Source: a virus
Virus record (IMG/VR): IMGVR_UViG_3300029774_000001
Length of the DNA stretch: 64,000 bases
Strand: one strand, 5' to 3'
In this document: in pieces, positions 12,465-54,119 of the stretch
Numbering within the stretch: the first letter of the stretch is position 1
How the letters are laid out: every line of letters starts with the position of its first letter
Translations under genes and position numbers: made by a program
The notes under the pieces: generated by a model
Told to the model about the DNA's origin: nothing
Databases searched by the model: none
Seen by the model: only the letters and a program-made list of their open reading frames with translations

Positions 12465-12573
12465 GCTATTGCGTATGTCATAAACAAATATTATCTTTGT
12501 GGTGTGATTGATAAGGGAGTGTTAAGCCTCCCTTTCTTAATCGGGTTAGACATAAACAAATATTATCTCGAAT
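12465..12573 (+). promoter_or_regulatory. Degenerate copy of the recurrent promoter cassette, plus a hairpin
   Basis: ttgcgtatgtcataa..TATCTTTG (-7 box 12492-12499), then hairpin AAGGGAG/CTCCCTT (12513-12534) and a partial duplication (gacataaacaaatattatct). Confidence 0.45.
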
Positions 12574-12870
12574 ATGAACAATATTGTAGAACTTAACGGA
12601 TTGCAGGGTGTAAAGAGTGAAAAGGTTTACGCCTATTTTTCAACCGAACCGAAAGAGGTGCAGAATGCCCTGGAGCTTGGAATAGCATGTACCGGGGCTG
12701 ATGATAACGGGGCGTACAACATTTATTTTGACGATGAAGAAAACATATGCTGTGAATACATGCAGCGTTGTGTCACGAAGGAGTTTAAAAAGGTGGAAAC
12801 AATAGAAGAAGCTGTGTTGTGGATGGAGGGTTATTTTAATATAAAGGGTTATGACAGAAAAGATTATTAA
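12574..12870 (+). CDS. Hypothetical early protein
   Basis: 98-aa ATG ORF and first gene after the promoter cassette. Confidence 0.6.
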   Translation: MNNIVELNGLQGVKSEKVYAYFSTEPKEVQNALELGIACTGADDNGAYNIYFDDEENICCEYMQRCVTKEFKKVETIEEAVLWMEGYFNIKGYDRKDY

Positions 12871-13117
12871 AAAGGAAGATGTAGAATACAAGCTGACATG
12901 TAGTTTGTTTATGGAATGGAACCGTCCGGCAAAGTATAGATTTAAACTACAGCAAAGAGAGTGCGGAAAAAGGAAATGGTTGGATTTAAAAGGAGAGGAA
13001 TGCTTGGTATATACAGAGAAAGATATTGTTTTGCAGTATGTGAGTAAAGAAGATGTGTTAGAGCTTGCTTTTGAGGAATACAAGAAATACTACCCTAATA
13101 ATGAAATGCTGAAATGA
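12851..13117 (+). CDS. Hypothetical protein
   Basis: 88-aa ATG ORF in tight same-strand packing. Confidence 0.55.
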   Translation: MTEKIIKKEDVEYKLTCSLFMEWNRPAKYRFKLQQRECGKRKWLDLKGEECLVYTEKDIVLQYVSKEDVLELAFEEYKKYYPNNEMLK

Positions 13118-13275
13118 AGACATTAATTTTTGATGTGATGCTGAATGAGCAATATATACACACGTTCAAATATAAATACAATCCTCTGTTTCCTATTGAG
13201 GAGGAAGAGTTAAGGAAGTTTGTGGAAGAGAGATTGCCGACATTGAAAGGGAAGAAATTCAAGATTTTGTTTTAG
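13114..13275 (+). CDS. Hypothetical small protein (53 aa, below the track cut-off)
   Basis: ATGA start/stop overlap with the previous ORF; it fills an otherwise empty gap. Confidence 0.4.
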   Translation: MKTLIFDVMLNEQYIHTFKYKYNPLFPIEEEELRKFVEERLPTLKGKKFKILF

Positions 13276-13278
13276 GGT

Positions 13279-13443
13279 ATGAATCTGAATGCTATCATAA
13301 AGAAATGGTTCTGTCGCCATGAATGGGAGCTGATGTATGAGAGAAAGGTTACGGCATGGGATGAGTTAGGATGTAATAAATATATTGCCAGATATTACGT
13401 CTGCAAGAAATGTGGCAGATACAAGAAAACCAAAAGTTATTGA
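13279..13443 (+). CDS. Hypothetical small Cys-containing protein (54 aa)
   Basis: ATG ORF with C-x-H...C-x-x-C that fills the gap before 13445. Confidence 0.4.
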   Translation: MNLNAIIKKWFCRHEWELMYERKVTAWDELGCNKYIARYYVCKKCGRYKKTKSY

Positions 13444-13444
13444 T

Positions 13445-13687
13445 ATGAAACAGACAGTAGAAAAGGCGTCAATAGAATATGCTGAATCGGTTATTCGTTC
13501 ATTTGGAACATGTGGGGTACCGAATGGAATTTCTGACATCAAGGAAATGATTGCTAATGGTTTTAATAGTGGTGCTGAATGGCAGAAGGAGAAAGCTATT
13601 GAAGCTTTGTCTTCTGTACTGGAGGACTGGGTACATGGTGGTGATGCAGACTGTATAATTGCAGAATTTGAAGAAAAATTGAAATAA
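13445..13687 (+). CDS. Hypothetical protein
   Basis: First ATG in the frame; the track start 13385 is non-ATG and overlaps the upstream small ORF. Confidence 0.55.
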   Translation: MKQTVEKASIEYAESVIRSFGTCGVPNGISDIKEMIANGFNSGAEWQKEKAIEALSSVLEDWVHGGDADCIIAEFEEKLK

Positions 13688-13688
13688 A

Positions 13689-13943
13689 ATGGATGAAAGG
13701 AAAATTCTTTTGTTTAAGAAGGGGTGTTATGATGTTGGAACACGTTTTTCTTTTATTGTAAATGGTAAGATTATCGAAACAGTCATAATTGATGTAATGA
13801 TTGATTATCATAAAAGCATCAATTATGAAAAGCATTCTGTAAGGTATCATTTTTGCACTATGGATAAACATACATTCGATGAATTTTCGGAAAGAGAATT
13901 AGAAGATATGATACATAGAGGGATTGTTTTATATATTGAGTAA
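13689..13943 (+). CDS. Hypothetical protein
   Basis: 84-aa ATG ORF starting 1 nt after the previous stop. Confidence 0.55.
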   Translation: MDERKILLFKKGCYDVGTRFSFIVNGKIIETVIIDVMIDYHKSINYEKHSVRYHFCTMDKHTFDEFSERELEDMIHRGIVLYIE

Positions 13944-13954
13944 TTGAAAAAGCC

Positions 13955-14215
13955 ATGAAAGGAAATATATTTGACAAAATAAGAAAAGCATCTAATAAAT
14001 ACATAGAGTATATGGTTGCTTGTGACTGTGTAGCCAAAGAAGCACAAAAACATATAGATTGGGACAATAATGTTTCGTGTGAATATTATCCCGGTGATGG
14101 AATATGTATAATGATAGACGAGCATGTTTGTTATGCTAATACATTCTTTGACTTGGTAGAAGAATCAGAAAACGGTATGCTTGATAGGGGAACTTTTATG
14201 AGAAATTGTATTTGA
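13955..14215 (+). CDS. Hypothetical protein
   Basis: 86-aa ATG ORF. Confidence 0.55.
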   Translation: MKGNIFDKIRKASNKYIEYMVACDCVAKEAQKHIDWDNNVSCEYYPGDGICIMIDEHVCYANTFFDLVEESENGMLDRGTFMRNCI

Positions 14216-14216
14216 C

Positions 14217-14390
14217 ATGGAAAGATATAGGATTGTGAAAGAAATAGGGTATAGCGGCTGTATTCCGATAGTCGTGTATTGCGTACAAGTCAGAAAAGAC
14301 AAACGTCTTTCGTCTGAATGGGTGAATGTAAAGGGGTTTGATACCTATAGGAAAGCAAGAGAGTTGTTGTTTGTTTTAAACGGTGATTGA
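14217..14390 (+). CDS. Hypothetical small protein (57 aa)
   Basis: ATG ORF that exactly fills the gap 14216-14391. Confidence 0.4.
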   Translation: MERYRIVKEIGYSGCIPIVVYCVQVRKDKRLSSEWVNVKGFDTYRKARELLFVLNGD

Positions 14391-14391
14391 T

Positions 14392-14697
14392 ATGGAAATA
14401 GTTCCCGATTTGATAAAAAGTAATCTATCTAAAAACCAGGTAGAATATATTCAAAAGAAACAGCATGAATATAAATTGACGAACAAGAAGAGGAGGGTTC
14501 CGGGACATATTTTATTTTCATTCAATCTGAAAACGAAAGAGATAAAGAGAGCTTCTATTACCAAAGAAGTTTCAATTGGATTAAACGGGAAACCTATAAT
14601 GAAAACTAAAATAGCTATTGAGCCGGATTGCTATTACGAACAAGCTTTGAATGAAAAGAATTTTAGAAAAAGATTAAAGAGGATTGGGTTAATATGA
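14392..14697 (+). CDS. Hypothetical protein
   Basis: First ATG in the frame; basic protein. Confidence 0.55.
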   Translation: MEIVPDLIKSNLSKNQVEYIQKKQHEYKLTNKKRRVPGHILFSFNLKTKEIKRASITKEVSIGLNGKPIMKTKIAIEPDCYYEQALNEKNFRKRLKRIGLI

Positions 14698-14885
14698 AAA
14701 CAATTAAGATTTCAAATTTACAAGAAGGGGATTTGTTCATATATAAAGGCGTAATGTATGAAATTGTACATAAGGACAAATGGGAAACCTATTGTAAATA
14801 TGTCAATAATAAAAGTCGTTTGGGATGGTTTTCAAGCGAATATTTTTATTGTAAATTTAGTAATTATACAAAAGTAGAGGTTTAA
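14694..14885 (+). CDS. Hypothetical protein
   Basis: 63-aa ORF with ATGA overlap. Confidence 0.5.
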   Translation: MKTIKISNLQEGDLFIYKGVMYEIVHKDKWETYCKYVNNKSRLGWFSSEYFYCKFSNYTKVEV

Positions 14886-14890
14886 GCATT

Positions 14891-15187: not shown

Positions 15188-15190
15188 AAT

Positions 15191-16287: not shown

Positions 16288-16289
16288 TT

Positions 16290-18026: not shown

Positions 18027-18488
18027 ATGGAAGCACATGTAATGAAGCTTGAAAACAACTGTGTAATTGTTGACGAGGAATATTTTAATGAGATAAAGAA
18101 GCAGTCAGAATTTAACCAAGAAAGGATAAACGAGATTGCCGAAGAAAGGTTTTTGGAATATGTCAAAGAAAGCGGTATTGAACTTTCCTATAAAGTAAAC
18201 GGAATACCTTATATGTTTCATTATGATTTGTTGAACGAAATAAATTATGAAGAGAGGGGTTATCCAGAATCCGTATCAGAAAAGGTAAAGTATGCTATCG
18301 CAGACGATATAACCGAGGCTTTGAATGATAAGCTTAAGGGATTGAAAGACGAGGCTTTGAATTATGCCTTAAGTGAGTTTGACAAACGGAAGCACGGTTT
18401 AGAGGCTACTGTAAAAATATGGAAATATTTCGCATTAATCTTTATCATTACGACTATTATTCTAACAATTAGATTATTTATATTGTGA
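18027..18488 (+). CDS. Hypothetical protein with a C-terminal transmembrane helix
   Basis: 153 aa with hydrophobic tail WKYFALIFIITTIILTI. Confidence 0.55.
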   Translation: MEAHVMKLENNCVIVDEEYFNEIKKQSEFNQERINEIAEERFLEYVKESGIELSYKVNGIPYMFHYDLLNEINYEERGYPESVSEKVKYAIADDITEALNDKLKGLKDEALNYALSEFDKRKHGLEATVKIWKYFALIFIITTIILTIRLFIL

Positions 18489-18489: not shown

Positions 18490-18606
18490 ATGATGTTAAA
18501 ACAGAGACAATTTAGACATAAGCACTTGCGTATCTCATAACATAATCTTATCTTTGCATTGTGAGATTAAGAGATGAAAAGTCAAACAAATAAAAAAGAT
18601 AAGGTT
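18490..18606 (+). promoter_or_regulatory. Recurrent promoter/operator/leader cassette, copy 2
   Basis: ATGTTAAAA box; palindrome GACATAAGCACTTGCGTATCTC (18515-18536); -7 box TATCTTTG (18549-18556); leader ..AAGTCAAACAAATAAAAAAGATAAGGTT-ATG. Confidence 0.7.
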
Positions 18607-18771
18607 ATGAAAGCAAGATTTTTAGAAAAGTTCATTATGATGGAATTTGTGAAAGGCAATTTAAATTCACAGGAACAAGTCAATGAAATGGTTTCTTTGA
18701 TACAGAGAAAGTTAGGTGTGTCAGTAGAGAATGCAAGAGAATTTTTAAGAAAAGCGGTTGGGTTGATTTAA
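18607..18771 (+). CDS. Hypothetical small protein
   Basis: Start moved to the ATG after the conserved leader. The track start 18574 translates the leader as MKSQTNKKDKV. Confidence 0.55.
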   Translation: MKARFLEKFIMMEFVKGNLNSQEQVNEMVSLIQRKLGVSVENAREFLRKAVGLI

Positions 18772-18798
18772 CAATAACAATTTGTTTTCTTCATATTA

Positions 18799-18826
18799 TA
18801 GGGCTATGTTTGTAGCCCTATTTTTA
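18799..18826 (+). terminator. Rho-independent terminator
   Basis: TAGGGCTA-tgtttg-TAGCCCTA followed by TTTTT. Confidence 0.75.
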
Positions 18827-18839
18827 AATCTGAAATAAA

Positions 18840-20294
18840 ATGGCTCAAAAGTTGTCTGCCGGATTCATGGCAGAATTATTCAAGCTTGTGTATATGGATT
18901 TGAATATCACCAGGATGGTGGTAAATAATCTGACTTATCAGTTAATACCCAAAGAGTGGCCCGGGTTCAAATTCTTGCTAAAAGAGGCAACAGAAGTATT
19001 AAAGGAAAAAGATAAGGTTCCTTCTTTGGGCGTGGTGTCCCAAAAATACGCTGATAGTGATTTTGTGATTGAAGCGATAGATGCTGTGCAGTCAGCCGCC
19101 AAAGTAGACAAGGAAATCATTATAGACCAGTTGGAAGCGTACATTAAAGATGTGGAATTCCAGCTACTTTCTAAAAAAGTACATGATTTGTACGAAGAAG
19201 GAAAGAAAGAAGATGCTATACGGGTAAATGCGGAAGAGAGCCAAAGAATTTTATCCCTATCATTAAGGCATGAGGCAGGCGGTTTTCAGAAAGTGTTCTC
19301 TGATTTTGACAAACGAATGAAGAGGAGACGGGAAGAAGAAGAGGGGGAGGTTCCATCACGCGTAATGTTCGGACTTGATAAGATAGACCAGATTTCAGAA
19401 GGCGGTGCCACAATGGAAGATACCGTGTTATGGATAATGCGTTCGGGTGTCGGTAAGTCTACTGTATTGAGATATCACGGTATGCAGGCAGCTTTTGACG
19501 GACACCCGGTCTTGCATATACAGTTGGAGGGCGGTGCGCGTGCGTGTCTGGAAAGATACGACCAGTTTTGGACCGGGCAAAAATACGGGAACATCAGAAA
19601 AGGTGTCATAGATGACAAGTTAGCCGAGAAAATAGAAAAGGCTTTTGAAAACATGAAATCCTATTCCAAGGACATAGATGTTTATTCTTTTGAAAAATTC
19701 GGGCAGGCTACTATGGTGGATATCCGTAACGTGATAGTTTCCTATTACAAGAAAAACGGTTATTATCCGCATGTATTGATATTGGATTCGTTAGACCTTG
19801 TGGCAACAGGAACAAATAGAGTTGTAGACAATAACCCTACATTCAAAAAAGAAAAATTACAGACATGTGCACAACTTTTGAAAAATTTATGTGTAGAGTT
19901 TAAAATGGTGGGATTTACGGCAGCACAAGCCGGAAATGTGCCGTTGGAAATATGGGACAATTCGGACAAAGTGATAGACAGAAGCTATACGGAAGGGGAC
20001 AGGACACTTGTAAAGCCGTTTTCCTTTGTGTTTACCGGGAACCGGACAAGAGAGGAAAAGAAACAGAACATAATGCGTATCTATATGGATAAGGTACGCG
20101 ATTATGATACGGTAAAAGATACCTTCCCTATTGTGACGGATTACGGCAGGGGACGTTTTTGTGACAAGGCGCTGACAGCCGAATATTACGGAGGTGACAA
20201 GGGTTTCACGTCCTCTACTTCTGAAAAGAAGACAAGAAAGAAAAAGGACGAAGGCGGTGAAAAGCAAAATGATGTTAAAACAGAGGTGATTTAG
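18840..20294 (+). CDS. Replicative DNA helicase, DnaB-like (SF4)
   Basis: Walker A R-S-G-V-G-K-S-T, Walker B V-L-I-L-D-S-L-D; RecA-type ATPase domain after an N-terminal helical domain. Confidence 0.75.
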   Translation: MAQKLSAGFMAELFKLVYMDLNITRMVVNNLTYQLIPKEWPGFKFLLKEATEVLKEKDKVPSLGVVSQKYADSDFVIEAIDAVQSAAKVDKEIIIDQLEAYIKDVEFQLLSKKVHDLYEEGKKEDAIRVNAEESQRILSLSLRHEAGGFQKVFSDFDKRMKRRREEEEGEVPSRVMFGLDKIDQISEGGATMEDTVLWIMRSGVGKSTVLRYHGMQAAFDGHPVLHIQLEGGARACLERYDQFWTGQKYGNIRKGVIDDKLAEKIEKAFENMKSYSKDIDVYSFEKFGQATMVDIRNVIVSYYKKNGYYPHVLILDSLDLVATGTNRVVDNNPTFKKEKLQTCAQLLKNLCVEFKMVGFTAAQAGNVPLEIWDNSDKVIDRSYTEGDRTLVKPFSFVFTGNRTREEKKQNIMRIYMDKVRDYDTVKDTFPIVTDYGRGRFCDKALTAEYYGGDKGFTSSTSEKKTRKKKDEGGEKQNDVKTEVI

Positions 20295-20428
20295 ACATAA
20301 GCACTTGCGTATGTCATAACATAATCTTATCTTTGTAGTGTCTTCTTAAGGGAGGCAAGAAAAGAAGGTGAAAGACTGTAAAGAACATCTTTTTTGGGAT
20401 ATATTGTTTATGAATTAGTTTAGAGGAT
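20269..20428 (+). promoter_or_regulatory. Recurrent promoter cassette, copy 3
   Basis: ATGATGTTAAAA (overlaps the helicase 3' end); palindrome 20294-20315; -7 box TATCTTTG 20328-20335; leader variant CTTCTTAAGGGAGG. Confidence 0.7.
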
Positions 20429-20761
20429 ATGAAAAGATATAAAGTTGGAGAAGTATTTGAATACGAAGGCATGATATTGAAAGCGATAGAAGATGATTTG
20501 AAACAAGAAGAAAGTGGATGTAAATATTGTGCTTTAAACAAATTTGTGTGCAGCCATATAGATTGTGGTACAAGAATGAATCCAAGTATTCGTTTTATTG
20601 AAGTTTCAAAAGAAAAACTTTTTGCGGATGCACTGCCAATAATCCAAGGTGCGCCTATGCCACCGCTTGAAGATAATACGAATTTTCTTGATGATTTGGA
20701 TTTGAAGCCGAAAAAGAAAAGCTTTTGGAAACGGTTAATGTTTTGGAGGAAAGATGTTTAG
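20429..20761 (+). CDS. Hypothetical Cys-containing protein
   Basis: 110-aa ATG ORF. Confidence 0.55.
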   Translation: MKRYKVGEVFEYEGMILKAIEDDLKQEESGCKYCALNKFVCSHIDCGTRMNPSIRFIEVSKEKLFADALPIIQGAPMPPLEDNTNFLDDLDLKPKKKSFWKRLMFWRKDV

Positions 20762-22307: not shown

Positions 22308-22349
22308 GAGATAACATTTGTTTATCTCAAAATTAAATTGTTATATTTG
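22308..22349 (+). promoter_or_regulatory. Hairpin followed by a -7 box
   Basis: GAGATAA-catttgt-TTATCTC, then TATATTTG (22342-22349), upstream of the MazG gene. Confidence 0.5.
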
Positions 22350-22372
22350 CAGTGTAATTAAAGAACAAAAGT

Positions 22373-23482: not shown

Positions 23483-23842
23483 ATGGAAGTTTCTTTGTTG
23501 ACTTTGAGAAATGTGGGACGGAAGCTTGGAATGCAGAACGTTTCCGGATTTAAGAAAGAAGACCTTTTGCAGCAGGTTGTCGAAAGACTGGAAGCAAAAG
23601 GAAAGACGATTGAAGAATATGCAAAGGAAGTTTCGATAAATACCCAAAAGGGGTATGTCAAGAAAAAGTTTAACCTTTCACCTAAAGGAAAAAACCCGTA
23701 CAAGAAAGGAAGTATATCGTATAAGGTGTGGGAAGAACTCGCAAAGAATGACGGTCGTTCATTCAGCCGGATTGCAAAAGAACTGGGAACGCATTACAAC
23801 GTTGTTTCCGTTTGTTGCAGGAACCATTTTAATAAATCATAA
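23483..23842 (+). CDS. Putative DNA-binding protein: SAP/Rho-N-like N-terminus plus a C-terminal HTH
   Basis: L-T-L-R-N-V-G-R-K-L-G-M-Q-N-V-S-G-F-K-K-E-D-L-L resembles a Rho-N/SAP motif. The C-terminal F-S-R-I-A-K-E-L-G-T-H-Y-N-V-V-S is HTH-like. Confidence 0.45.
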   Translation: MEVSLLTLRNVGRKLGMQNVSGFKKEDLLQQVVERLEAKGKTIEEYAKEVSINTQKGYVKKKFNLSPKGKNPYKKGSISYKVWEELAKNDGRSFSRIAKELGTHYNVVSVCCRNHFNKS

Positions 23843-23921: not shown

Positions 23922-25517
23922 ATGGAAGAGTTGTATAAAGACTTAATCAAATATTTGGAAGATAATTTTTTGTCTTTCAATGTTTTAGATAATTATATTG
24001 TAGAAATTGACGGGCAGACATTTGAATTGTTCGAGCCTTTTAAGTGGGATAAGGACGAAAACGGGATTTTCTTTGACGATTCGTTCCAGTGGGTAGGAGA
24101 TAGGACAGAATGTGATAACTATGTTTTCCGGTTTGGCGATGTATGGTATTATCTGAAAAAGGGAGACGAAAACAAGGTAAAACTTAACCGATTGCAGTAT
24201 ATCGGAAAAGCGAATTTGTTTGACGAAAGTTTGAGGTTTGACACCTATATAGGAGTGCATGGTAATTTTGAGTTGATGAACGGGATGCACTTTTATTCCG
24301 ACTGGGTGGAAAAGGCGAAATTCATGGGGATAAGGGCGCTTGGCATATGCGAAAAGAATACGCTTGCATCAGCGTTCAAGTTTCAAAATGCGTGTCTAAA
24401 AAGCGACATAAGACCTATATTCGGTATGGAAGTTACCGTATATAATGAACAGAAGGACGTTAGATATACGGTAAAACTGATAGTCAAGAATAAGGAGGGG
24501 TGGAATAACCTATTGAAAATAAACAAAATTCTGAATGTTGACGAAAAAGGTTTTATCACGGAAAAGGAATTGCAGGAAATGAAAGACGGATGTTTTCTAC
24601 TACTTGACCCGAAAACATGTACGTTTGAAAATCTCCCTATATTGTCAAGAAAATGGAATGACACTTATTACCAGCTTGATACCGTGGAATACAAGAAGAA
24701 TGACCGGGATAAAAAATATCTTGACAATCTGAAAAAGTTCGTGGGTGTGTATAAGCCCGTGGCGGTATGTGACGCTTGGTACCTGGAAAGACGGTGCGCC
24801 CCTATAAGAGAAAAGCTTAACAGATTGGCAAAGGTAGTGAATTATGAGAGTGACAACCAGTACATGAAGAACTATCAAGAGTATTACGAAGAACTGTCAA
24901 AACTGATATTGGACGAAGACAAGTTTTTCGGACTGTTTGAAGAAGCTTTGGTAAATCTTAATTACATATCGGTAAATTGTAATTATTTGCTGGAGACACA
25001 AGTACGGCATGCACCCCAATATGTAATGACAGAAGAGGAGAAAAAGAAATATTCGTCCAATACAGAAATGTTTGAATCGCTTGTATTTGACGGACTGGCA
25101 GAACATCCGGAAATACTGGATAGATACAGTGAAGAAGAACTGACGGAAAGACTGAACACGGAAATATCCATCATAGAAGAAGGCGATGTAGTGGACTACT
25201 TTCTGATGCTGAGGGACATTATCAGATGGGGAAGGGATAATAACATTTTGGTCGGACTGGGGAGAGGCTCCTCCGCTGGCTCTTTGGTGTCCTATCTTCT
25301 TGGTATTGTTAATGTAAACCCGTTGGAATACGAACTCCTATTCAGTCGATTTTTGACAAAGGGTCGTTTAATTCGGCATGAAGAGGAAGAAGTGGTAATG
25401 ATAAACGGAGAAAAAGAAATATCCGGAAATGCTTTTATAAAGATTATCAGAAATGACGAGGAAATGATAATCAGAGCGAAAGAGCTAAAAGAAGGTGACG
25501 AACTGATAAACGAATAG
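23922..25517 (+). CDS. dnaE: DNA polymerase III alpha (DnaE-type), N-terminal fragment: PHP domain plus start of palm
   Basis: PHP-like G-V-H-G-N-F-E-L-M-N-G and palm motif G-L-G-R-G-S-S-A-G-S-L-V-S-Y-L-L-G-I..N-P-L..L-L-F-S-R-F-L. Ends at TAG 25515-25517. Confidence 0.8.
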   Translation: MEELYKDLIKYLEDNFLSFNVLDNYIVEIDGQTFELFEPFKWDKDENGIFFDDSFQWVGDRTECDNYVFRFGDVWYYLKKGDENKVKLNRLQYIGKANLFDESLRFDTYIGVHGNFELMNGMHFYSDWVEKAKFMGIRALGICEKNTLASAFKFQNACLKSDIRPIFGMEVTVYNEQKDVRYTVKLIVKNKEGWNNLLKINKILNVDEKGFITEKELQEMKDGCFLLLDPKTCTFENLPILSRKWNDTYYQLDTVEYKKNDRDKKYLDNLKKFVGVYKPVAVCDAWYLERRCAPIREKLNRLAKVVNYESDNQYMKNYQEYYEELSKLILDEDKFFGLFEEALVNLNYISVNCNYLLETQVRHAPQYVMTEEEKKKYSSNTEMFESLVFDGLAEHPEILDRYSEEELTERLNTEISIIEEGDVVDYFLMLRDIIRWGRDNNILVGLGRGSSAGSLVSYLLGIVNVNPLEYELLFSRFLTKGRLIRHEEEEVVMINGEKEISGNAFIKIIRNDEEMIIRAKELKEGDELINE

Positions 25518-25521: not shown

Positions 25522-27597
25522 ATGATAGTAAAAAATATTGAAATAAAACGTCGGGCAAAGACCGTATTAGGGTCAATGCCAGATATAGATACCGACTTCC
25601 CAGGCAGAAGACGAGACGAAATAAAAGCTTACATGGAAGAACGGTTCGGTAAGGAGCAGGTTTGTTCGCTTGGCACCTATACTACTCTCCAGCTAAAAGA
25701 GGCAATATCGGACATGGCGCGTGCAGACGGCATACCAGTACAGTTATACAGATGGTTTACCGCTTGTATCGGAGATGACAAGGAAAAGACGATAGAGGAG
25801 TTTTTTAAGACTGTATGCGGAAAGGAAGACCTAAAGAAGTTCGTGAAGGAACATACAGAAACGTTCAACGACATGTTGGTAGTTCTTGGTTCACCTAAAA
25901 GCCAGTCAGTGCATGCGTGTGGAACCGTAGTGTTGCCAGATGGAAAAACATCCTACGAATGGATGCCCGTACATACACAAAAAGGACTTGTAGTTACGGA
26001 CTGGGAAGGTTCGGAAGTGGAAGAGGCAGGCTTCCTAAAGGAAGATGTTTTGGGTATCATACAGTTGGATAAGTTCGAGGAAATGTTACGCTTGATAAAG
26101 GAGAACCACGGAATAGATATTGACATATACAGCTTGCCTTTGGACGATAAGCAGGTATTCGAGTATGCAGGTAAAGGATGGCTGGGAGATGTTTTTCAGC
26201 TTGGTTCAGCAGGATTATCCGGATATTGCGTAAAAATGAAACCGGAAAACATAAACGAACTGTCTGCATGTGTGGCTCTCTACAGACCTGGACCTATGGA
26301 AAACAATTTCCACAACGAATATATTTTGCGGAAGAACGGGGAAAAGGACTGGACAGAAGAAATGCCTATAGGCGGTGAAGAAGTGGTGAAGAAAGATTTT
26401 GGACTACTTGTCTATCAAGAAAGTATAATGTTATTAGCCCAAAAACTTGCCGGATTTGATTCTGAAACAACAGACCTTTTGCGTAAATGTTTGGGGAAGA
26501 AGGATTTAAAGAAGATAAAACTTTATAAAGACAAGTTTATTACTAATTATGCAAAAAATTTTGCTTCTAAGGGTGTCACAAAGGAATACGCGGAAAATCT
26601 TTGGAACCAAATGGAAGAGTTTGCAAAATATTCGTTCAACAAATCTCATTCCGTATGCTATGGTATGACCGCTTATATATGCCTATGGCTTAAGGTACAT
26701 TATCCTATTGAGTATTGGAGTGCTACATTCTCGTTTGCGAAAGATGAAAAGATACCTTATTATGTAAACGAAATACAGCAGTCCGGTGAGATAAAGATAC
26801 ATCCAGTAGATATCAACAAGTCAGATATAAACATTGTGTCCGATTATCGTACAAACAGTATGTATTGGGCATTCAACGCAGTAAAACAATGTGGGGAAAG
26901 AGCACAGGAACATATATCGGAGGAGAAAAAGAAGAACGGGCCTTTTTTCTCTTTGGAGGAATTTATAGACAGATGTGTAATTAAAGGCAGTCCGGTAAAT
27001 AAATCTGTCATTGAGAATTTGATATTTGCAGGAGCGTTCGACGAATTGGAGAATATCCAGGAACCTAAAGACCGTTTGGCGCTTATTGAGATGTACCGCG
27101 AGAACAAAAGGGTTAAGATATTGGAGGATAAGGATTTACTTACCAATATTATGAAAGTCCGCAAAGAACGCAATAATTGGTGGTGGCTGTTGCAGCAAAA
27201 AAGAACGTCCGGTTTTGCATTTTTTGATTATTACGATTTGGTAAATGAATATCATATGCCTAAATTAGACGACGAAACGGAATTCCAGGATGTGTCGCAG
27301 ATAAAATTTTGGGACATTAATTCAAAGAAAACCCGTCGTGCCGTGATAGGCGGTTATGTGATTGAGATAATAGAGAGGAAAAGCAAGAAGGGCATATTTG
27401 CCACTATAGTATTGGAAAGTAATTATGAGTTTATAAATGTAACTATTTTCCCAGAGTTGTTTGAAGAATACGGAGAGTTTTTAAGGGGTAGTAAAAAGAA
27501 CATTTTGTTGGTTAACGGTGTGATTGTGTGGGATAAGTTCAGAGGAGAATATATTTTGCAGGCGAATGTTAATTCATTGTTTACAGTATTGACGTAA
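25522..27597 (+). CDS. dnaE: DNA polymerase III alpha (DnaE-type), C-terminal fragment: catalytic PDxD, fingers, HhH, OB
   Basis: M-P-D-I-D-T-D-F at residues 19-26, then V-H-A-C-G, Y-R-P-G-P-M, Y-Q-E-S-I-M and F-N-K-S-H-S-V-C-Y. Sits in the +1 frame relative to the N-fragment, 4 nt after its stop. Confidence 0.85.
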   Translation: MIVKNIEIKRRAKTVLGSMPDIDTDFPGRRRDEIKAYMEERFGKEQVCSLGTYTTLQLKEAISDMARADGIPVQLYRWFTACIGDDKEKTIEEFFKTVCGKEDLKKFVKEHTETFNDMLVVLGSPKSQSVHACGTVVLPDGKTSYEWMPVHTQKGLVVTDWEGSEVEEAGFLKEDVLGIIQLDKFEEMLRLIKENHGIDIDIYSLPLDDKQVFEYAGKGWLGDVFQLGSAGLSGYCVKMKPENINELSACVALYRPGPMENNFHNEYILRKNGEKDWTEEMPIGGEEVVKKDFGLLVYQESIMLLAQKLAGFDSETTDLLRKCLGKKDLKKIKLYKDKFITNYAKNFASKGVTKEYAENLWNQMEEFAKYSFNKSHSVCYGMTAYICLWLKVHYPIEYWSATFSFAKDEKIPYYVNEIQQSGEIKIHPVDINKSDINIVSDYRTNSMYWAFNAVKQCGERAQEHISEEKKKNGPFFSLEEFIDRCVIKGSPVNKSVIENLIFAGAFDELENIQEPKDRLALIEMYRENKRVKILEDKDLLTNIMKVRKERNNWWWLLQQKRTSGFAFFDYYDLVNEYHMPKLDDETEFQDVSQIKFWDINSKKTRRAVIGGYVIEIIERKSKKGIFATIVLESNYEFINVTIFPELFEEYGEFLRGSKKNILLVNGVIVWDKFRGEYILQANVNSLFTVLT

Positions 27598-35507: not shown

Positions 35508-35621
35508 TATGTTAAAACAGTGTTAAAATGGCATAAGCAGTTGCGTATCTCATAACATAATCTTATCTTTGCATTGTGAGATTAAGAGATGATAAGTCAA
35601 ACAAATAAAAAAGATAAGGTT
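35508..35621 (+). promoter_or_regulatory. Recurrent promoter cassette, copy 4 (near-identical to copy 2)
   Basis: ATGTTAAAACAGTGTTAAAA boxes; palindrome 35531-35551; -7 box TATCTTTG 35564-35571; same leader as copy 2. Confidence 0.7.
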
Positions 35622-35894
35622 ATGAAATCACTTGAAGAACTTAAGAACAGTATTTACGAGAAGATAAACGAAATCAGAAATTTCGATACTGACGACTCTA
35701 AAGTCTTTAATGAGGATGAGACATACAACTATGAGGAACTGGACGCTTATCTTGAAAGAAACAAGAAAAAGAACTATATGAAAGCCGCTTGCATGAGGAT
35801 GATTAAAAATTATCTTGACAGAATGTATGACGGATGGAAGTTCTACGAGAAGGATTATCTTATTTATGTGAATGACTTTAAAAGATTTGGATAG
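35622..35894 (+). CDS. Hypothetical protein
   Basis: Start moved to the ATG after the conserved leader; the track start 35589 translates the leader. Confidence 0.55.
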   Translation: MKSLEELKNSIYEKINEIRNFDTDDSKVFNEDETYNYEELDAYLERNKKKNYMKAACMRMIKNYLDRMYDGWKFYEKDYLIYVNDFKRFG

Positions 35895-43025: not shown

Positions 43026-43360
43026 AAAAACAAAAAATGTATATCCCCGTACTTGAACCGGGAAAGAGTGTATCACTTGTGTGTGCAAATAAAGTAACGG
43101 GATTGGAGGACCATTTGCCGACCCAGGAAATGCTGAATATCCACATGGAACAGCAGAAGATAATGATACAGAAGGATAAGGATTATAAGGTACATCCTTT
43201 ATATCTTTTCGTGGAAAAAGAAGAATTCAATGATTTGGTAAGAAGGATAAGAGGAAAGAACAAGAACGCGGAAACGGCTTGTATTCCGCTTGTATGCCAA
43301 TATCCGGCTGTGCCTATATGTGTGCTTTGTCCCAAACAGAAAGAGGAGGCGAAAGAATGA
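43022..43360 (+). CDS. Hypothetical protein
   Basis: 112-aa ORF with ATGA overlap. Confidence 0.55.
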   Translation: MKKQKMYIPVLEPGKSVSLVCANKVTGLEDHLPTQEMLNIHMEQQKIMIQKDKDYKVHPLYLFVEKEEFNDLVRRIRGKNKNAETACIPLVCQYPAVPICVLCPKQKEEAKE

Positions 43361-43785
43361 TATTCGAGTGCACGTTTACCTACATGGCACCCGACCCGAA
43401 TTCGACAAGCGGTAATTATAAAAAGTTTGTCGATGTCATAGCGGTACAGGCAGAAAACTATATGGATGCCGAAACAATGGCAACCGAATACGGGATGTTC
43501 AATATAGACGCGGACTTTGCCATATCTCCTATTAAGGAGGTGATTATAGATTCGGTGCAGCGTAACGAAAAGCACGGGGGACGATGGTACAAATGCACGG
43601 GCGTATACAGTGAGGCAACCGTTTCTGGAAAGCTGAAACAATACAAGCTGGTTATATTGCAACAGCATGAGGACTTTATAAAAGCCTCTACTAAAGCGCT
43701 GGAATACATGCAAGACCTTGTAGGCGAATGCAGACTGACGAAGGTAGAGGAAACTCCTATAATCGAATATGTGGAAAAGGACTGA
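43357..43785 (+). CDS. Hypothetical protein
   Basis: First ATG after the overlap (MIFECTF..). Confidence 0.55.
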   Translation: MIFECTFTYMAPDPNSTSGNYKKFVDVIAVQAENYMDAETMATEYGMFNIDADFAISPIKEVIIDSVQRNEKHGGRWYKCTGVYSEATVSGKLKQYKLVILQQHEDFIKASTKALEYMQDLVGECRLTKVEETPIIEYVEKD

Positions 43786-43896
43786 TATGTTAATTATATG
43801 TTAAAACGACATAAGCAGTTGCGTATGTCATAACATAATCTTATCTTTGTGGTGTGATAAGGAAAACGATAAGTCAAACAACAAAAAGATAAGATT
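43786..43896 (+). promoter_or_regulatory. Recurrent promoter cassette, copy 5
   Basis: ATATGTTAATTATATGTTAAAA; palindrome GACATAAGCAGTTGCGTATGTC 43808-43829; -7 box 43842-43849; leader AAGTCAAACAACAAAAAGATAAGATT-ATG. Confidence 0.7.
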
Positions 43897-44124
43897 ATGA
43901 ATTCAGTATTTAAAGCCAAGAAACAAATGTTAGAAAACACTCTTTCAAAGGTTGCAAAAGTTAGTGTTGAAATAACTTTTGCCCGTGTTAACATGATAAC
44001 GATAGCTTGGGATGAAGAAAACAAAAGCGCATTTGAAAGATTGCAGAACTACTTCAAAGGAAAACTTTTTGGCTACGAATACGACGAGGAATGCGATATG
44101 TCTGTTTGTTGTTTGAATTTATAA
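43897..44124 (+). CDS. Hypothetical protein
   Basis: 75-aa ATG ORF after the cassette. Confidence 0.55.
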   Translation: MNSVFKAKKQMLENTLSKVAKVSVEITFARVNMITIAWDEENKSAFERLQNYFKGKLFGYEYDEECDMSVCCLNL

Positions 44125-46993: not shown

Positions 46994-47028
46994 AGCCAGC
47001 AGTTTGTGATAAATAGCTGGCTTTTATT
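46994..47028 (+). terminator. Rho-independent terminator
   Basis: AGCCAGC..GCTGGCT followed by TTTATTAT. Confidence 0.65.
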
Positions 47029-47040: not shown

Positions 47041-47148
47041 ATGTTAATTATATGTTAAAAGCACATAAGCACTTGCTTATGTCTAAATAAGGTCTTATAT
47101 TTGCAATGTGATAAGAAAACGAAGTCAAACAAATAAAAACAAAAGATT
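47041..47148 (+). promoter_or_regulatory. Recurrent promoter cassette, copy 6 (perfect palindrome)
   Basis: ATGTTAATTATATGTTAAAA; ACATAAGCA-CT-TGCTTATGT 47063-47082; -7 box TATATTTG 47096-47103; leader AAGTCAAACAAATAAAA. Confidence 0.7.
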
Positions 47149-47409
47149 ATGGCAAGCCCCAAAGTAAGACTGGAAGGAAAGAAAATCGCAGAAAAGGTGA
47201 TGGAGTTTATGGACGAATATTCATTTGACCCTATCTATAAGGAGATAGGGAAGAACGGGGACGACACCTATATCAGCGAGATACTGCGCTGCTTCCCTAC
47301 AAGAAGAATAATAAACGATTTGGACGAACGCGGAGAACTCCATGAAGCATACAAGGAATATGTAGACATGAACGGAGTAACTCTCGTAAAGGACATAGCA
47401 AGAGAATGA
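47149..47409 (+). CDS. Hypothetical protein
   Basis: 86-aa ATG ORF. Confidence 0.55.
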   Translation: MASPKVRLEGKKIAEKVMEFMDEYSFDPIYKEIGKNGDDTYISEILRCFPTRRIINDLDERGELHEAYKEYVDMNGVTLVKDIARE

Positions 47410-47525
47410 CAAACAAGGAAAAGCTCGAACTCGTATCGGAACTTTTCAAGATACCTTACCTGGCAAGTCCGGAAGAATACGGGGAAGCGATAGCGAAGGC
47501 AGCAAGGGAACAATATTACAGATAA
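47406..47525 (+). CDS. Hypothetical micro-protein (39 aa)
   Basis: ATGA overlap; fills the gap. Confidence 0.3.
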   Translation: MTNKEKLELVSELFKIPYLASPEEYGEAIAKAAREQYYR

Positions 47526-47553
47526 TCAATAACCAGCAAAAAAGCAGAACAAA

Positions 47554-50405: not shown

Positions 50406-50426
50406 CTCGTTTTGAGATAAAAACAC

Positions 50427-50565: not shown

Positions 50566-50581
50566 CAAATTTTGTATCATT

Positions 50582-51049: not shown

Positions 51050-51469
51050 ATATATTTTACTATATTCAGAAAGTATTCTCCCTTATAGGGCAATCGATAC
51101 TACAGTATGCTGTAGCCGCGATTTTGCAAATTTCGTATTTTTATCATTTGTAAATTTAAATTGAAATAATTATGTATCCTACTAAAATAAATATAGCAAA
51201 CAGCAGTAGAAGAATTCGTTTGTCCCTATCCTTTGATGGATGAAGACGAAATCAACGGTTCCGGTGACTGGAAAAGTGAAGAAGGGGTAATTTGATTGTT
51301 TTCGGGATGCCGGGAATTTCGGGTGTTTTGTCCGGTTCCCGGTTTTTCATTTTCCTTATTTTATTGTACACCGAAAAACAACACAATTTTCAGAGTTAGT
51401 GTTAACTGTCTGATAATCACATACCATTTTCTTCTATTTCTAAAAAATATAATGTCACTGAAAGAAAGG

Positions 51470-51581
51470 TTATGTTAATCTTATGTTAAAACGACATAAG
51501 CACTTGCGTATGTCTGATTAAGTACCTATATTTGCAATGTGATAAGGAAACAAGGTCAAACAAATTAAAAGAAATAAGGTT
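51470..51581 (+). promoter_or_regulatory. Recurrent promoter cassette, copy 7
   Basis: TATGTTAATCTTATGTTAAAA; palindrome 51493-51514; -7 box TATATTTG 51527-51534; leader GGTCAAACAAATTAAAA. Confidence 0.7.
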
Positions 51582-51806
51582 ATGAAAGCAGAATTTTACA
51601 AGGTGAGAGGTACGGAAATGGAAGAGATGATGAAGAGAGGTAATAACAACGAAATCTCCTCTATGATTTCCAAGAAACAACAAGCACTTGCCGAGGCACT
51701 TGAAAATGTGGAGTTCTATAAGTCTATCGGGAATATGGAGTTTGCATCCAACGAGCAAAGCCGCGCTAATCTCCTTCAAAGACAACTCGAAATGTTGAAC
51801 AAATAA
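51582..51806 (+). CDS. Hypothetical protein
   Basis: 74-aa ATG ORF after the cassette. Confidence 0.55.
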   Translation: MKAEFYKVRGTEMEEMMKRGNNNEISSMISKKQQALAEALENVEFYKSIGNMEFASNEQSRANLLQRQLEMLNK

Positions 51807-51819
51807 AAATTAAAGAAAT

Positions 51820-51996
51820 ATGAAACTTTTGGAAATACACAAAAACGGAATTAACGCCAATAACAAAACAGTAAGTTACTACGGTTTGGATTATGAGAAA
51901 AAGAAAGTGCTGTTTGAAGTAAAGACACTGGAAGAAGCCATTGAGAAGGGGTCTTGTCTTGGCTATAAAAACGGTGAAATAGTAATAATGTTCTAA
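51820..51996 (+). CDS. Hypothetical small protein (58 aa)
   Basis: ATG ORF below the track cut-off, followed by a hairpin terminator. Confidence 0.45.
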   Translation: MKLLEIHKNGINANNKTVSYYGLDYEKKKVLFEVKTLEEAIEKGSCLGYKNGEIVIMF

Positions 51997-52005
51997 ATTT
52001 AATCC

Positions 52006-52023
52006 GGTAGCCTTCGGGCTACC
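52006..52023 (+). terminator. Tetraloop hairpin
   Basis: GGTAGCC-TTCG-GGCTACC. Confidence 0.55.
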
Positions 52024-52038
52024 ACAATATACACAGTT

Positions 52039-52284
52039 ATGAAAGCAATTGTAGAAAACCCGTTGAATGCCTATCATTCACCAACAGCAATCTCTATTTA
52101 TGTCAATATACTTAACGAAATTACCGAATGTAATGACGAAAAAGAATTAAGAAAGGCAATGAAATTCATTTCTGCGAATTACCCGATTACATTCAATTCT
52201 CTTTTTGATTACGGTTTCGGTTCCAACCATATGTGGGTCAGTGAGAAGGAAAGCGGTAAACGTCTTATTCTTGTTGAATTCTAA
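52039..52284 (+). CDS. Hypothetical protein
   Basis: 81-aa ATG ORF. Confidence 0.55.
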   Translation: MKAIVENPLNAYHSPTAISIYVNILNEITECNDEKELRKAMKFISANYPITFNSLFDYGFGSNHMWVSEKESGKRLILVEF

Positions 52285-52296
52285 AAATTTTACATT

Positions 52297-52479
52297 ATGA
52301 AAAAACAGCTTATAAATTTCTTCAACGGCCGTTTCGGCAAGAAAATATTGAAAGCCAAATATCGTGAATGGTGGGTACGTTTCTGGTACGGAGTAGGAGC
52401 AATCGTTTGCACTTTCCTATTCTTTGGAATGATACAGTTTATGTCCTGGATTTCTGATTTGATTAATTATGTTTTCTAA
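52297..52479 (+). CDS. Small membrane protein
   Basis: TM helix GVGAIVCTFLFFGMIQF. Confidence 0.5.
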   Translation: MKKQLINFFNGRFGKKILKAKYREWWVRFWYGVGAIVCTFLFFGMIQFMSWISDLINYVF

Positions 52480-52498
52480 TAAAAAATATTTTACAATT

Positions 52499-53173
52499 AT
52501 GAAAAAGGTATTATGTGACAAAGACGGGAAATTTATTTCCATACATGATAGTGATTACTATTTAATGGAGCTTAACGACGGCGATTGTCTGACGCATGAA
52601 GACGGTACGATAGTGATATACAAGGAAAGTGAAGAAGACCCGTTGCTGGAAAACATGTACTTCCATGCCTATTATAAAAACGGCAGACTTCATCTTTCAA
52701 AAAGAGCTTCTTCCTTTTATGATTATGTCAGTTGTGGATACAGATTCTCTACAGAAGAAGAAAAGAAGCGTATAAACAACGCTCTTTCTGAAAATGAGTT
52801 ATACTATGACGAGAAAGAGAAATGCCTTAAAAAGCTTCGTTGGCGTGCTGTAATAGGTAATCATTATTACAGTATCAATTTTGATTCTTTTACAATCTTC
52901 CAAGCTACGGAAACGGACGAATCGATAGACAATTCGCGATACAAGAACCTTACTATTTCCAGACAAAGGAAGAAGCGGAAAAGAAACTGTTTGAGATTAA
53001 AGCGGCTCTCAATGATTAAGAAGGAGTGTTACGTGTGGGTCGGACATATTGTCGAATACCAGGGAATGACGTTACGAAAAGTCCGACCGGGCAAATACGT
53101 AATCATTTCTCCGTGTTCCCTGGTTTCTCGACCCGTCTATATTGACAGGAACGAAAATTTGCACGTTCTTTAG
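52499..53173 (+). CDS. Hypothetical protein; possibly two genes or frame-disrupted near 52.9-53.0 kb
   Basis: First ATG (MKKVLC..). The R/K-rich stretch RQRKKRKRN coincides with a more natural alternative frame (..YYFQTKEEAEKKLFEIKAALND*) that ends at an ATGATTAA overlap. Confidence 0.45.
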   Translation: MKKVLCDKDGKFISIHDSDYYLMELNDGDCLTHEDGTIVIYKESEEDPLLENMYFHAYYKNGRLHLSKRASSFYDYVSCGYRFSTEEEKKRINNALSENELYYDEKEKCLKKLRWRAVIGNHYYSINFDSFTIFQATETDESIDNSRYKNLTISRQRKKRKRNCLRLKRLSMIKKECYVWVGHIVEYQGMTLRKVRPGKYVIISPCSLVSRPVYIDRNENLHVL

Positions 53174-53210
53174 TATCAATTATTTGTTTTATTTTTATAT
53201 ATTTGCAGCT

Positions 53211-53513
53211 ATGGTAACAGCGATTTTTGTGTGTTTGATTGTTCTTACGGTAGTCCTTATCACTCTCCTTTTGTGGTGCATAGGGGCGGTTACGGGAATT
53301 CAGAAAAGAATGAATGTTCTTCTTTATACGGTCTCCTATATAGACCTTATCCAAAGAAAGCGGTTCATCCGGTATCTGGACCAGCTTTCCAGGAAGATGA
53401 GCTGTAATGAGGACGAGATGGAGGACAATCAGAAACAATTCCTATTCCATTTAAGCCAGGAATTGACGAGCGAAATAAAAAGGATGGAAGACGATTATAA
53501 AGACTTGATATGA
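53211..53513 (+). CDS. Membrane-anchored hypothetical protein
   Basis: ATG at 53211 with an N-terminal TM helix; TATATTTG box at 53198-53205. Confidence 0.5.
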   Translation: MVTAIFVCLIVLTVVLITLLLWCIGAVTGIQKRMNVLLYTVSYIDLIQRKRFIRYLDQLSRKMSCNEDEMEDNQKQFLFHLSQELTSEIKRMEDDYKDLI

Positions 53514-53911
53514 GCAAAAAGAATGAATTCACATACGACGGGGGAAGCATGTACATAGATTGGCTTTGTTATTCCAACAAGCTTATTTTGCTTCGTGACA
53601 GCCACATTATAAGCGGTGAGGACAGAACGTCTGTTGCCCGTGCCCTAAAATGCAAGACTGGTGATATCCTTTGTCTTGTGCTGGGACAGAACATCAGCTA
53701 TTTCGGATATAGCAAGCTGATTGAGGATATGGGGGGACGGACAACGGAAAGTATCGTAAAGTCCGAGAACCCGGTATTTTCTTCCGTCTACTGGACTGGC
53801 GACAAGAAAGCGGCTATCACATCACACACTATTTTCATTCCCTGGAAAGAACTTAAGGAGATTATCAAGGAATGGGACTATCCGACATACTTTCATCCCG
53901 ACATAGTTTAG
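53510..53911 (+). CDS. Hypothetical protein
   Basis: 133-aa ORF with ATGA overlap. Confidence 0.55.
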   Translation: MSKKNEFTYDGGSMYIDWLCYSNKLILLRDSHIISGEDRTSVARALKCKTGDILCLVLGQNISYFGYSKLIEDMGGRTTESIVKSENPVFSSVYWTGDKKAAITSHTIFIPWKELKEIIKEWDYPTYFHPDIV

Positions 53912-54004
53912 AACCTTCTTTCTCTAAATTTTATATATATTTGTTTGACTGACACCCGGTTACGCTCTTCGTGAAAGAATGTTTCTGGGTGTTTTCTTTG
54001 TGGT

Positions 54005-54119
54005 TATATGTTAAAATAGTGTTAAAATGACATACGCAGTTGCTTATGTCCAAATAAGTCCTTATATTTGCAATGTCTTCTTAAGGGAGGCGGTTAATTA
54101 AGTCAAACAAATAAAGATT
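54005..54119 (+). promoter_or_regulatory. Recurrent promoter cassette, copy 8
   Basis: TATATGTTAAAATAGTGTTAAAA; palindrome GACATACGCAGTTGCTTATGTC 54029-54050; -7 box TATATTTG 54063-54070; CTTCTTAAGGGAGG plus the AAGTCAAACAAATAAA leader. Confidence 0.7.

Follow-up and report, generated by a model that had tools for sequence, protein, structure and literature searches.

The dispersed operators of temperate phages include the conserved inverted repeats (CIR) at the early promoters of phiC31, the C1 operators of P1 and the stoperators of mycobacteriophage L5. In T4, the middle promoters carry a MotA box at −30 that works with AsiA, and the CII protein of λ straddles −35. T4-type phages also carry promoter-early stem-loop (PeSL) cassettes (Arbiol et al. 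2010, PMC2839356; Comeau et al. 2014, PMC4122927). These are repeated units of tens of base pairs, each of which begins at the stop codon of one gene, includes AT-rich sequence and an early promoter of host type, and ends at the start codon of the next gene. They lie mostly ahead of small open reading frames (ORFs) of unknown function, also flank replication genes, and recombine with one another, leading to gene insertion, deletion, replacement and movement among close relatives. Such recombination can also give rise to mini-circles that become encapsidated. Here we analyze a 64,000-nucleotide stretch of viral DNA (IMG/VR record IMGVR_UViG_3300029774_000001; hereafter the window), which is 64 kb of a ~105-kb genome, the remainder being ~40 kb. 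The window harbors exactly eight copies of a cassette of ~110 bases, all on the + strand, seven complete and one degenerate, each combining a host-type promoter, a 22-bp dyad and an A-rich leader. With a probability of roughly 0.6, the cassettes would form a host-read, co-regulated promoter class with an operator for a dimeric protein at −33.

The cassettes share with PeSL units the many near-identical copies with a host-type early promoter between stop and start codons, the placement before small ORFs, and the insertions, deletions, replacements and translocation among relatives. They differ from them in that the promoter is of the Bacteroidota −33/−7 type instead of the σ70 type and the leader lacks a Shine-Dalgarno sequence. 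In addition, the symmetric element is fixed in sequence and position (−46 to −25) without keeping its pairing, whereas PeSL stem-loops vary in both and have been shown to terminate transcription. Like the phiC31, P1 and L5 genomes, the window repeats one short conserved putative protein site at many promoter-proximal places, an arrangement by which a single protein controls many units and which, in sequence, matches the phiC31 CIR and P1 C1 type. However, those phages are temperate and their sites are bound by a lysogeny repressor, whereas PHROGs and Pfam searches of the 64-kb window gave no family match for an integrase, a repressor or a sigma factor. A scan for the 20-nt dyad in one genome per species across 185,579 species found no prophage copy, which argues against a temperate lifestyle; the phage is probably virulent. 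As with T4 MotA and λ CII, a phage-specific element that would define a temporal class occupies the −35 region while the host −10-type element is kept. The host TTG at −33 is retained here, though, and where those promoters have a 9-bp asymmetric box or direct repeats, the cassettes have a 22-bp dyad; MotA-, AsiA- or CII-like proteins were undetected in the window, such proteins being small and fast-evolving. Ordinary promoters of the Bacteroidetes primary sigma factor offer the same −7 box, TTG at −33 and A at −12, −13, −6 and −3 of the leader (Baez et al. 2019, PMC6847099), but conserve little past the −7 box, whereas conservation here covers ~100 nt, with a dyad and phased boxes.

Copy number and promoter geometry

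The preliminary description of the window had claimed eight + strand copies, and the pattern scan, the shuffled controls and a profile hidden Markov model (HMM) bear this out. The dyad pattern CATAAGCASTTGCKTATSTC, with up to three mismatches allowed, had no matches outside the eight places named and, being palindromic, matched these on both strands; the expectation was 0.00, and 100 dinucleotide-preserving shuffles gave zero matches. The scan also confirmed the perfect palindrome that had been noticed at 47063-47082. The HMM of the core, built from 102 unique copies, found eight + strand matches, seven with E ≤ 2e-17 and the copy at 12457-12508 with E = 9e-8; its only other weak match was a plain promoter (22311-22356). 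The half-site ACATAMGCA occurs 12 times versus 1.08 expected and never outside the cassettes. Enrichment was also seen for the −7 box plus start, for the leader motif and for the ATGTTAAAA box, and the occurrences of all three coincide. By repeat finding, the paralogous copies are 63-100% identical across 48-104 nt with unrelated flanks, cassettes 2 and 4 sharing 97% identity over 99 nt. All copies are confined to the early/replication region at 12.4-55.5 kb, and the 19.7 kb of flanking sequence, with presumed late genes, contains none. When the motif scan was extended to relatives, the cassette recurred at syntenic sites in more than 60 related contigs.

Bacteroidetes promoters are numbered from F. 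johnsoniae RNA-seq as T−12 A−11 T−8 T−7 T−6 G−5, with the −33/−7 consensus TTTG/TANNTTTG, of which the −33 element is weakly conserved in the F. johnsoniae data (PMC6847099). All eight window copies carry TATCTTTG or TATATTTG and so match the −7 element TAnnTTTG (TAHHTTTG). Upstream, the tetramer sTTG has three of the four TTTG consensus bases, and its G precedes the TA of the box by 20 nt, the distance originally reported and one within the ~19-21 nt expected between the two elements. Its first base (−36) is C or G and never T in the copies examined, including loci ascertained through the helicase gene. Since sTTG occupies −36 to −33, the 22-bp dyad (consensus GACATAMGCA-ST-TGCKTATSTC, centred at −35.5) extends from −46 to −25. 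The gap from dyad to −7 box, first given as 13-14 nt, is 12 nt in each copy, and the predicted +1 is the G of GTGA/GTCT, ~5 nt past the −7 box. Further upstream, (A/G)TGTTAA boxes are located at about −58 and −69; with a spacing of 11-12 nt, they would therefore lie on one face of the helix. In the information profile of the 102 unique copies, the dyad and the −7 box are near-maximal, the boxes and the first transcribed bases are moderate, and most of the 12-nt spacer is low. A reading of the ATGTTAA boxes as a mini-ORF (MLIIC*) was considered and set aside; copies 2, 3 and 8 do not keep it, so it is taken to follow from the 11-nt direct repeat.

Matches to σ70-type promoters are not enriched in the window (47 versus 42.7 expected), and that reading was rejected. 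To judge from sequence, the cassettes are very probably promoters for the host RNA polymerase that head the early and replication transcription units, and the phage probably infects Bacteroides. Two plain Bacteroides-type promoters in the window have no dyad, one at 22311-22361 on the + strand (TTTG, 21 nt, TATATTTGCAGTGT) and the other at 56509-56516. The gene behind cassette 4 is 87% identical at the nucleotide level to a gene of the B. uniformis phage EMB1 (ON721384). The plain promoters (22342 and 56509) and the EMB1 promoter contain the TTTGCA-TG core and lack the dyad; therefore, the core is generic and the dyad is an add-on. The EMB1 homologue (L183:1400-1520) is preceded by a TATATTTGCAATGTC promoter with neither dyad nor boxes, and its leader ends in the cassette-like AAAAAGATAAAGTTATG. 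This suggests that small genes are exchanged together with their translation starts between unrelated Bacteroides phages.

The leader is usually 41-46 nt long. Its motif AAGTCAAACAAATAAAA, described as conserved throughout, is present in six of the eight window copies and absent at 12435 and 20269; the form AAGTCAAAC occurs in six of the eight as well. Across 66 unique leaders the composition is 51% A, with A frequencies of 0.95 at −12, 0.89 at −13 and 0.88 at −6, and the −3 base is exclusively A or G. These are the initiation determinants of Bacteroidetes, which use A at −12, −13 and −6 and A or G at −3 without a Shine-Dalgarno sequence (PMC6847099). Five of the eight leaders have minimum free energies of −0.9 to −3.4 kcal/mol with z near 0 against shuffles, and the GTCTTCTTAAGGGAGGC leader variant forms only a small hairpin at its 5′ end. 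An Rfam search of the leaders gave no match, they share no conserved fold, and a tRNA search found none; a structured leader or known RNA family was rejected on these grounds. Therefore, the shared post-transcriptional control suggested earlier is weaker than claimed, since the leaders are unstructured and fit the Bacteroidetes optimum for translation initiation. We read the leader most readily as a region optimised for starting translation that travels with the promoter, although a common RNA-binding factor at GTCAAAC is conceivable.

The dyad as a candidate operator

The dyad varies in a way that ignores base-pairing. At the variable arm position (position 7), 78 of the 102 unique copies hold non-pairing states (65 A/G and 13 C/T), the others being A/T (13) or C/G (11), and there are no compensatory changes. 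The two arms take A or C at this position independently, with fewer pairs than independence predicts. The right arm is frequently CTC without a compensating change in the left arm, and the helicase-ascertained loci show an additional, uncompensated left-arm variant, ACATACTCA. The predicted RNA hairpins span energies of −0.9 to −15.7 kcal/mol, with three of the eight window copies at −2.8 kcal/mol or weaker. Because the sequence of the dyad is kept and its pairing is not, a dimeric DNA-binding protein is favoured over a hairpin, and the dyad is likely the site of a dimeric sequence-specific protein. The preliminary description had already placed a dimeric regulator here, and the geometry agrees: the dyad straddles −33, where a predicted dimer would overlap the contact of sigma region 4, and the independent half-site variation fits a protein site.

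Related contigs carry the dyad widely. The 17-nt dyad core occurs in at least 116 stretches of viral contigs, and among the matches listed, 141 of 160 pattern matches are followed by the −7 box at the set spacing. Of the other 19, most come from unrelated sequence that has no cassette, one of them, L040, being a cassette with the box TATATTTA. The relatives are viral contigs of ~105-108 kb, and all cassette-bearing contigs belong to one tight clade (helicase ≥94% identical); hundreds of public contigs encode the relatives' proteins, whose cluster names are all 'hypothetical', and no cultured relative with the cassette is present among 50,697 deposited phage genomes. Orthologue diversity is 0.03-0.11 in the leader and boxes, 0.14-0.28 at third codon positions of the adjoining genes, and 0.25-0.33 in the spacer at three sites. 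The helicase-ascertained site, the one site free of dyad ascertainment bias, gives 0.076 for the dyad, 0.075 for the spacer, 0.041 for the −7 box and 0.151 for third codon positions of the helicase. Distant relatives (helicase 66-67% identical, GC 31%) use their own repeated cassette, cTGTTG-N20-TATCTTTAGG, without the dyad; by helicase similarity, they are the nearest relatives found outside the clade. Therefore, the cassette habit is older than this operator, and the dyad is lineage-specific. The distant cassette, found at L172:4942-5016, at L173:3932-4015 and 5880-5950, and in L184-L191, has a similar A/C-rich leader ending in ATTATG.

The same dyad also occurs in bacterial chromosomes. The scan of 185,579 species found two matches in uncultured Bacteroidales, and a metagenome scan added at least two more. 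These belong to an element, AAAGTGGCATACGCACTTGCGTATGTCATTTTTTTTGTGTAYYTTTGCA, of 50-51 bp that is 96-98% identical between loci in otherwise unrelated surroundings and combines the phage dyad with the identical 12-nt gap to a TAnnTTTG (TAYYTTTG) box. The genes that follow the copies (L180:6630-6680; L179:1073-1123; L181:3569-3618, − strand; L182:4561-4610) include hflX, where the element comes just after rpsO, and two kinds of permease gene, one mlaE-like and the other fecCD-like. Where the dyad matches, the chance of a −7 box at precisely this spacing is ~1/4,096, so the resemblance should reflect common descent or a common binding factor. The chromosomal dyad is a perfect hairpin (−15.5 kcal/mol) followed by a T8-10 run and thus looks like a terminator fused to a promoter.

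According to our model, each cassette would be where the host RNA polymerase, of Bacteroides type and with its primary sigma factor, begins a transcription unit, and the eight together would make one co-regulated class for early, nucleotide-metabolism, replication and recombination genes. The dyad would serve as the operator of a dimeric sequence-specific protein, encoded by phage or host. Since the promoter looks self-sufficient and the dyad covers its −33 element, competition of the dimer with sigma region 4 seems most likely, which would switch off all units together, either as a Cro-like early shut-off or through gating by a host factor. That the protein acts as a repressor is a tentative proposal, at slightly less than even odds from what the sequence offers. 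The phased A/T boxes may act as an upstream element (UP-like or by curvature) or as auxiliary sites, and the leader would ensure strong translation without a Shine-Dalgarno sequence. As a by-product, near-identical ~100-bp cassettes may be homologous recombination substrates that shuffle small accessory ORFs.

Several observations weigh against this model. PHROGs and Pfam searches of essentially all window ORFs yielded no convincing DNA-binding regulator. Three weak candidates are the ORF at 23483-23842 (Rho_N with E=1.3e-3 and sub-threshold helix-turn-helix matches), the ORF at 55126-55515 (an AP2-like segment by PHROGs) and the ORF at 56729-58027 (sub-threshold winged-helix-turn-helix matches). 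The two AlphaFold models made for candidate regulators are both of low confidence; that of 55126-55515 has a pLDDT of 66 and no significant match in the PDB, a plant AP2 domain ranking 42nd with E=2.8. In addition, a dyad near −35 can equally serve an activator, and the chromosomal copies look terminator-like. Since the carriers form one tight clade, orthologous conservation is weak evidence, and at the helicase-ascertained site the dyad is no more conserved than the adjoining spacer. The similarity of the paralogues could owe much to gene conversion.

The last point leads to the view that a promoter-leader segment was simply spread and homogenised by gene conversion, its dyad having no regulatory meaning. 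Recombination between cassettes is indeed visible, the near-identity of cassettes 2 and 4 is what such a process would leave, and the equal conservation of spacer and dyad at the helicase site agrees with it. However, the paralogues keep the dyad and the −7 box near-invariant while the 12-nt spacer and the bases at −4 to −1 vary freely, and the dyad recurs at the same distance from its −7 box amid different flanks in bacterial chromosomes, so that a meaningless dyad is quite improbable. We consider it just as improbable that the palindrome works as a stem-loop, whether by terminating or attenuating read-through as in PeSL or as an extruded hairpin promoter of the N4 type, the alternative raised in the preliminary description. 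PeSL stem-loops can overlap the −35 box (PMC2839356), the bacterial version of the dyad folds strongly before its T8, and five of the eight cassettes have no terminator-like hairpin of their own directly upstream, four of these five abutting or overlapping the stop codon of the preceding gene. But the stem is mismatched without compensation in most phage copies, its folding energy is erratic and no T-run follows it, while cassettes 6 and 8 have terminator-like hairpins with T-runs of their own upstream. An N4-type promoter also sits poorly with the host-type −7 box at a fixed distance. RNA polymerase was undetected in the 64 kb by PHROGs, Pfam and a PDB sequence search of the large ORFs, although very divergent ones could escape. 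A virion-polymerase promoter of crAss-like or N4-like phages was likewise rejected: the window encodes a DnaE-type DNA polymerase, the hairpin is unconserved, and the genome is neither crAss-like nor N4-like.

More serious, though still unlikely, is an activator in place of a repressor. The cassettes would then be middle-type promoters on which a phage activator bound to the dyad replaces or assists −33 recognition, and they would fire only once an earlier phage protein has been made. The −36 base is never T even at helicase-ascertained loci, which were not selected on that base, the real immediate-early or late promoters could be the dyad-less ones at 22342 and 56509, and the replication genes that the cassettes drive are of a kind often expressed in the middle phase. 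On the other hand, a perfect −7 box with TTG at the canonical distance makes the promoter look self-sufficient, and the −33 element is weakly conserved in the related F. johnsoniae data anyway (PMC6847099). The block of small ORFs at 12.5-18.5 kb after the structural genes, which looks typically early, is also headed by a cassette, and a MotA/AsiA-like or sigma-like protein was undetected in the window. Somewhat less probable again is that a host transcription factor uses the dyad as its operator, by which the early and replication operons would join a host regulon or would have borrowed a host element, and the lytic programme would follow the physiological state of the host. The Bacteroidales element with the same dyad and spacing speaks for it, as does the failure to find a clear phage-encoded regulator in the window. 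Yet each of these genomes has one exact site, they are uncultured Bacteroidales (RUG644, UBA2800) with no established link to the phage host, and the three downstream genes form no obvious regulon. The bacterial copies, moreover, resemble terminator-plus-promoter composites, and the distant phage group uses a different upstream element. The bacterial 50-bp elements may instead be a domesticated phage cassette; a host-factor operator or such domestication, in either of which a module is shared by phage and host, is together a rather doubtful prospect. The co-regulated, host-read promoter class with a dimer operator at −33 thus remains the reading that we prefer.

Gene movement and the individual cassettes

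Genes are gained, lost and moved at the cassettes. Flank typing showed that relatives keep the cassettes at syntenic positions but differ in the ORF that comes first behind each. After ORF 18027-18488, this ORF is the 18574 gene (14 copies) or a homologue of the 43897 gene (6); after ORF 43279-43785, the 43897 gene (6) or directly the 44164 gene (7). The helicase is followed by the 20429 gene (5), directly by the primase (8) or by a 52039 homologue (1), and ORF 53510-53911 by the 54120 gene (11) or the 54765 gene (6). Two contigs, 3300045988_097873 and 3300029501_000001, have the 43897 homologue at the cassette-2 site; in the former, the cassette-5 site leads straight into the next gene. The moved homologue has a similar coding sequence by eye, and its leader goes with the gene while the upstream boxes stay. 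Across the clade, about two dozen groups of small first ORFs, clustered by their first 12 residues only and mostly 43-126 aa long, are found behind cassettes.

Cassette 1, the degenerate copy, occupies 12435-12576 on the + strand, as do all others. Its start had been placed at 12465 but lies at about 12435, inside the 3′ end of ORF 11853-12464, which contains the ATGTTAAAT box at 12435 and the left dyad arm (7/10). The dyad (12458-12479, GGAATAAGCTATTGCGTATGTC) is followed by the −7 box at 12492-12499, the predicted +1 at 12504 and, after a leader of 70 nt with the hairpin AAGGGAG..CTCCCTT, the ATG at 12574. Behind this hairpin (GGGAG..CTCCC) comes a partial cassette duplication at 12540-12568, an 83%-identical second copy of the dyad arm plus spacer at 12468-12496 (TTAGACATAAACAAATATTATCT). 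Cassette 2 (18490-18609) has a box at 18493-18501, the dyad at 18515-18536, the −7 box at 18549-18556 and a predicted +1 at 18561, with a leader of 46 nt up to the ATG at 18607 of a 54-aa ORF. Between this ORF and the DnaB-like helicase lies a terminator-like hairpin (18798-18828, −13.6 kcal/mol, with a T-run), which may attenuate transcription past the small ORF.

In cassette 3 (20269-20431), the boxes lie within the 3′ end of the helicase gene, whose stop codon TAG (20292-20294) touches the edge of the dyad at 20294-20315. The −7 box (20328-20335) and predicted +1 (20340) precede a leader of 89 nt with a GTCTTCTTAAGGGAGGC 5′ hairpin and the ATG at 20429; this cassette heads the block of primase and DnaE polymerase. 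The claim that all copies are intergenic is thus partly right, since copies 1 and 3 overlap coding ends. Cassette 4 (35508-35624), at the head of the ligase and helicase block, has boxes at 35509 and 35521, the dyad at 35530-35551, the −7 box at 35564-35571, a predicted +1 at 35576 and a 46-nt leader up to the ATG at 35622 of a 90-aa ORF. Cassette 5 (43786-43899) has two TATGTTAA boxes 11 nt apart, the dyad at 43808-43829 and the −7 box at 43842-43849; from the predicted +1 at 43854, a 43-nt leader reaches the ATG at 43897 of a 75-aa ORF.

Cassette 6 (47041-47151) follows a terminator-like hairpin at 46994-47027. It has two boxes, a dyad (47062-47083) whose inner 20 bp (47063-47082) are the perfect palindrome, a −7 box at 47096-47103, a predicted +1 at 47108 and a 41-nt leader up to the ATG at 47149. 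In the interval 47149-47553, the first gene after it codes for 86 aa, whereas most relatives in its 90% cluster have 125 aa, and is followed by 144 nt without a called gene, which suggests that it is truncated or frameshifted in this genome. Cassette 7 (51470-51584) also has two boxes, with the dyad at 51493-51514, the −7 box at 51527-51534, a predicted +1 at 51539 and a 43-nt leader up to the ATG at 51582 of a 74-aa ORF. Upstream of it, ~420 nt (51050-51470) after an endolysin-like gene have no convincing ORF, and tRNA and Rfam searches of this interval gave no match. Cassette 8 (54005-54122) is preceded by a terminator-like hairpin at 53952-53999, and its unit closes at another (55593-55622). 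Its two boxes are followed by a dyad (54029-54050) in which the variable A and C positions are swapped between the arms, a −7 box at 54063-54070, a predicted +1 at 54075 and a 45-nt leader with a 5′ hairpin up to the ATG at 54120.

The genes of the window include a DnaB-like helicase, a primase, a DnaE-type polymerase, SbcCD, a UvsX/RecA-like recombinase and a Holliday-junction resolvase, as well as an NAD-dependent ligase, RNase H, two further helicases, a methyltransferase, MazG, dTMP kinase, an endolysin-like protein and a holin. The polymerase is nearest to those of Cellulophaga phiST-type phages (40% aa identity) and Bacteroides DAC/SJC phages (34%). It consists of two adjoining ORFs 4 nt apart, 23922-25517 (531 aa) and 25522-27597 (691 aa), the latter of which aligns over its full length to a 'DNA polymerase III alpha' gene of Cellulophaga phages. 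The 1.2 kb at 55516-56728, which contain the hairpin that closes unit 8, have little + strand coding, a membrane-like − strand ORF of 151 aa (55641-56096) and long purine/G-rich runs at ~56290-56420. The plain TATGTTTG promoter at 56509 stands here, ahead of a 432-aa protein with two weak winged-helix matches; this region could be an origin or the early/late boundary. At the left end, two giant + strand ORFs gave no informative match. Between them, a lone − strand ORF of 492 aa (3928-5406) without a family match is bounded by a strong bidirectional terminator-like hairpin (3877-3921, −20.5 kcal/mol).

Implications for Bacteroides phages

Literature searches (motif strings, TAnnTTTG in phages, Flandersviridae, phiC31) returned nothing that describes the element. 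Repeated early-promoter cassettes that act as recombination junctions are already known, and so are dispersed operators that tie many units to one protein. What sets the present version apart is the Bacteroidota −33/−7 promoter, the dyad of fixed sequence over −33 in place of a variable stem-loop, and the leader that sits at the Bacteroidetes optimum without a Shine-Dalgarno sequence.

Almost nothing is known about the timing of gene expression in Bacteroides phages that are not crAss-like, and the cassette provides a precise, testable regulatory unit for an abundant uncultured clade of gut phages. The 22-bp putative operator could be used to fish out its regulator, and the compact, strong promoter-leader may serve the engineering of Bacteroides. 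The chromosomal copies raise the question of an operator shared by phage and host, which, if true, would increase the interest of the system. In addition, the idea of the cassette as a recombination junction is extended from T4-type coliphages to phages of Bacteroidota.

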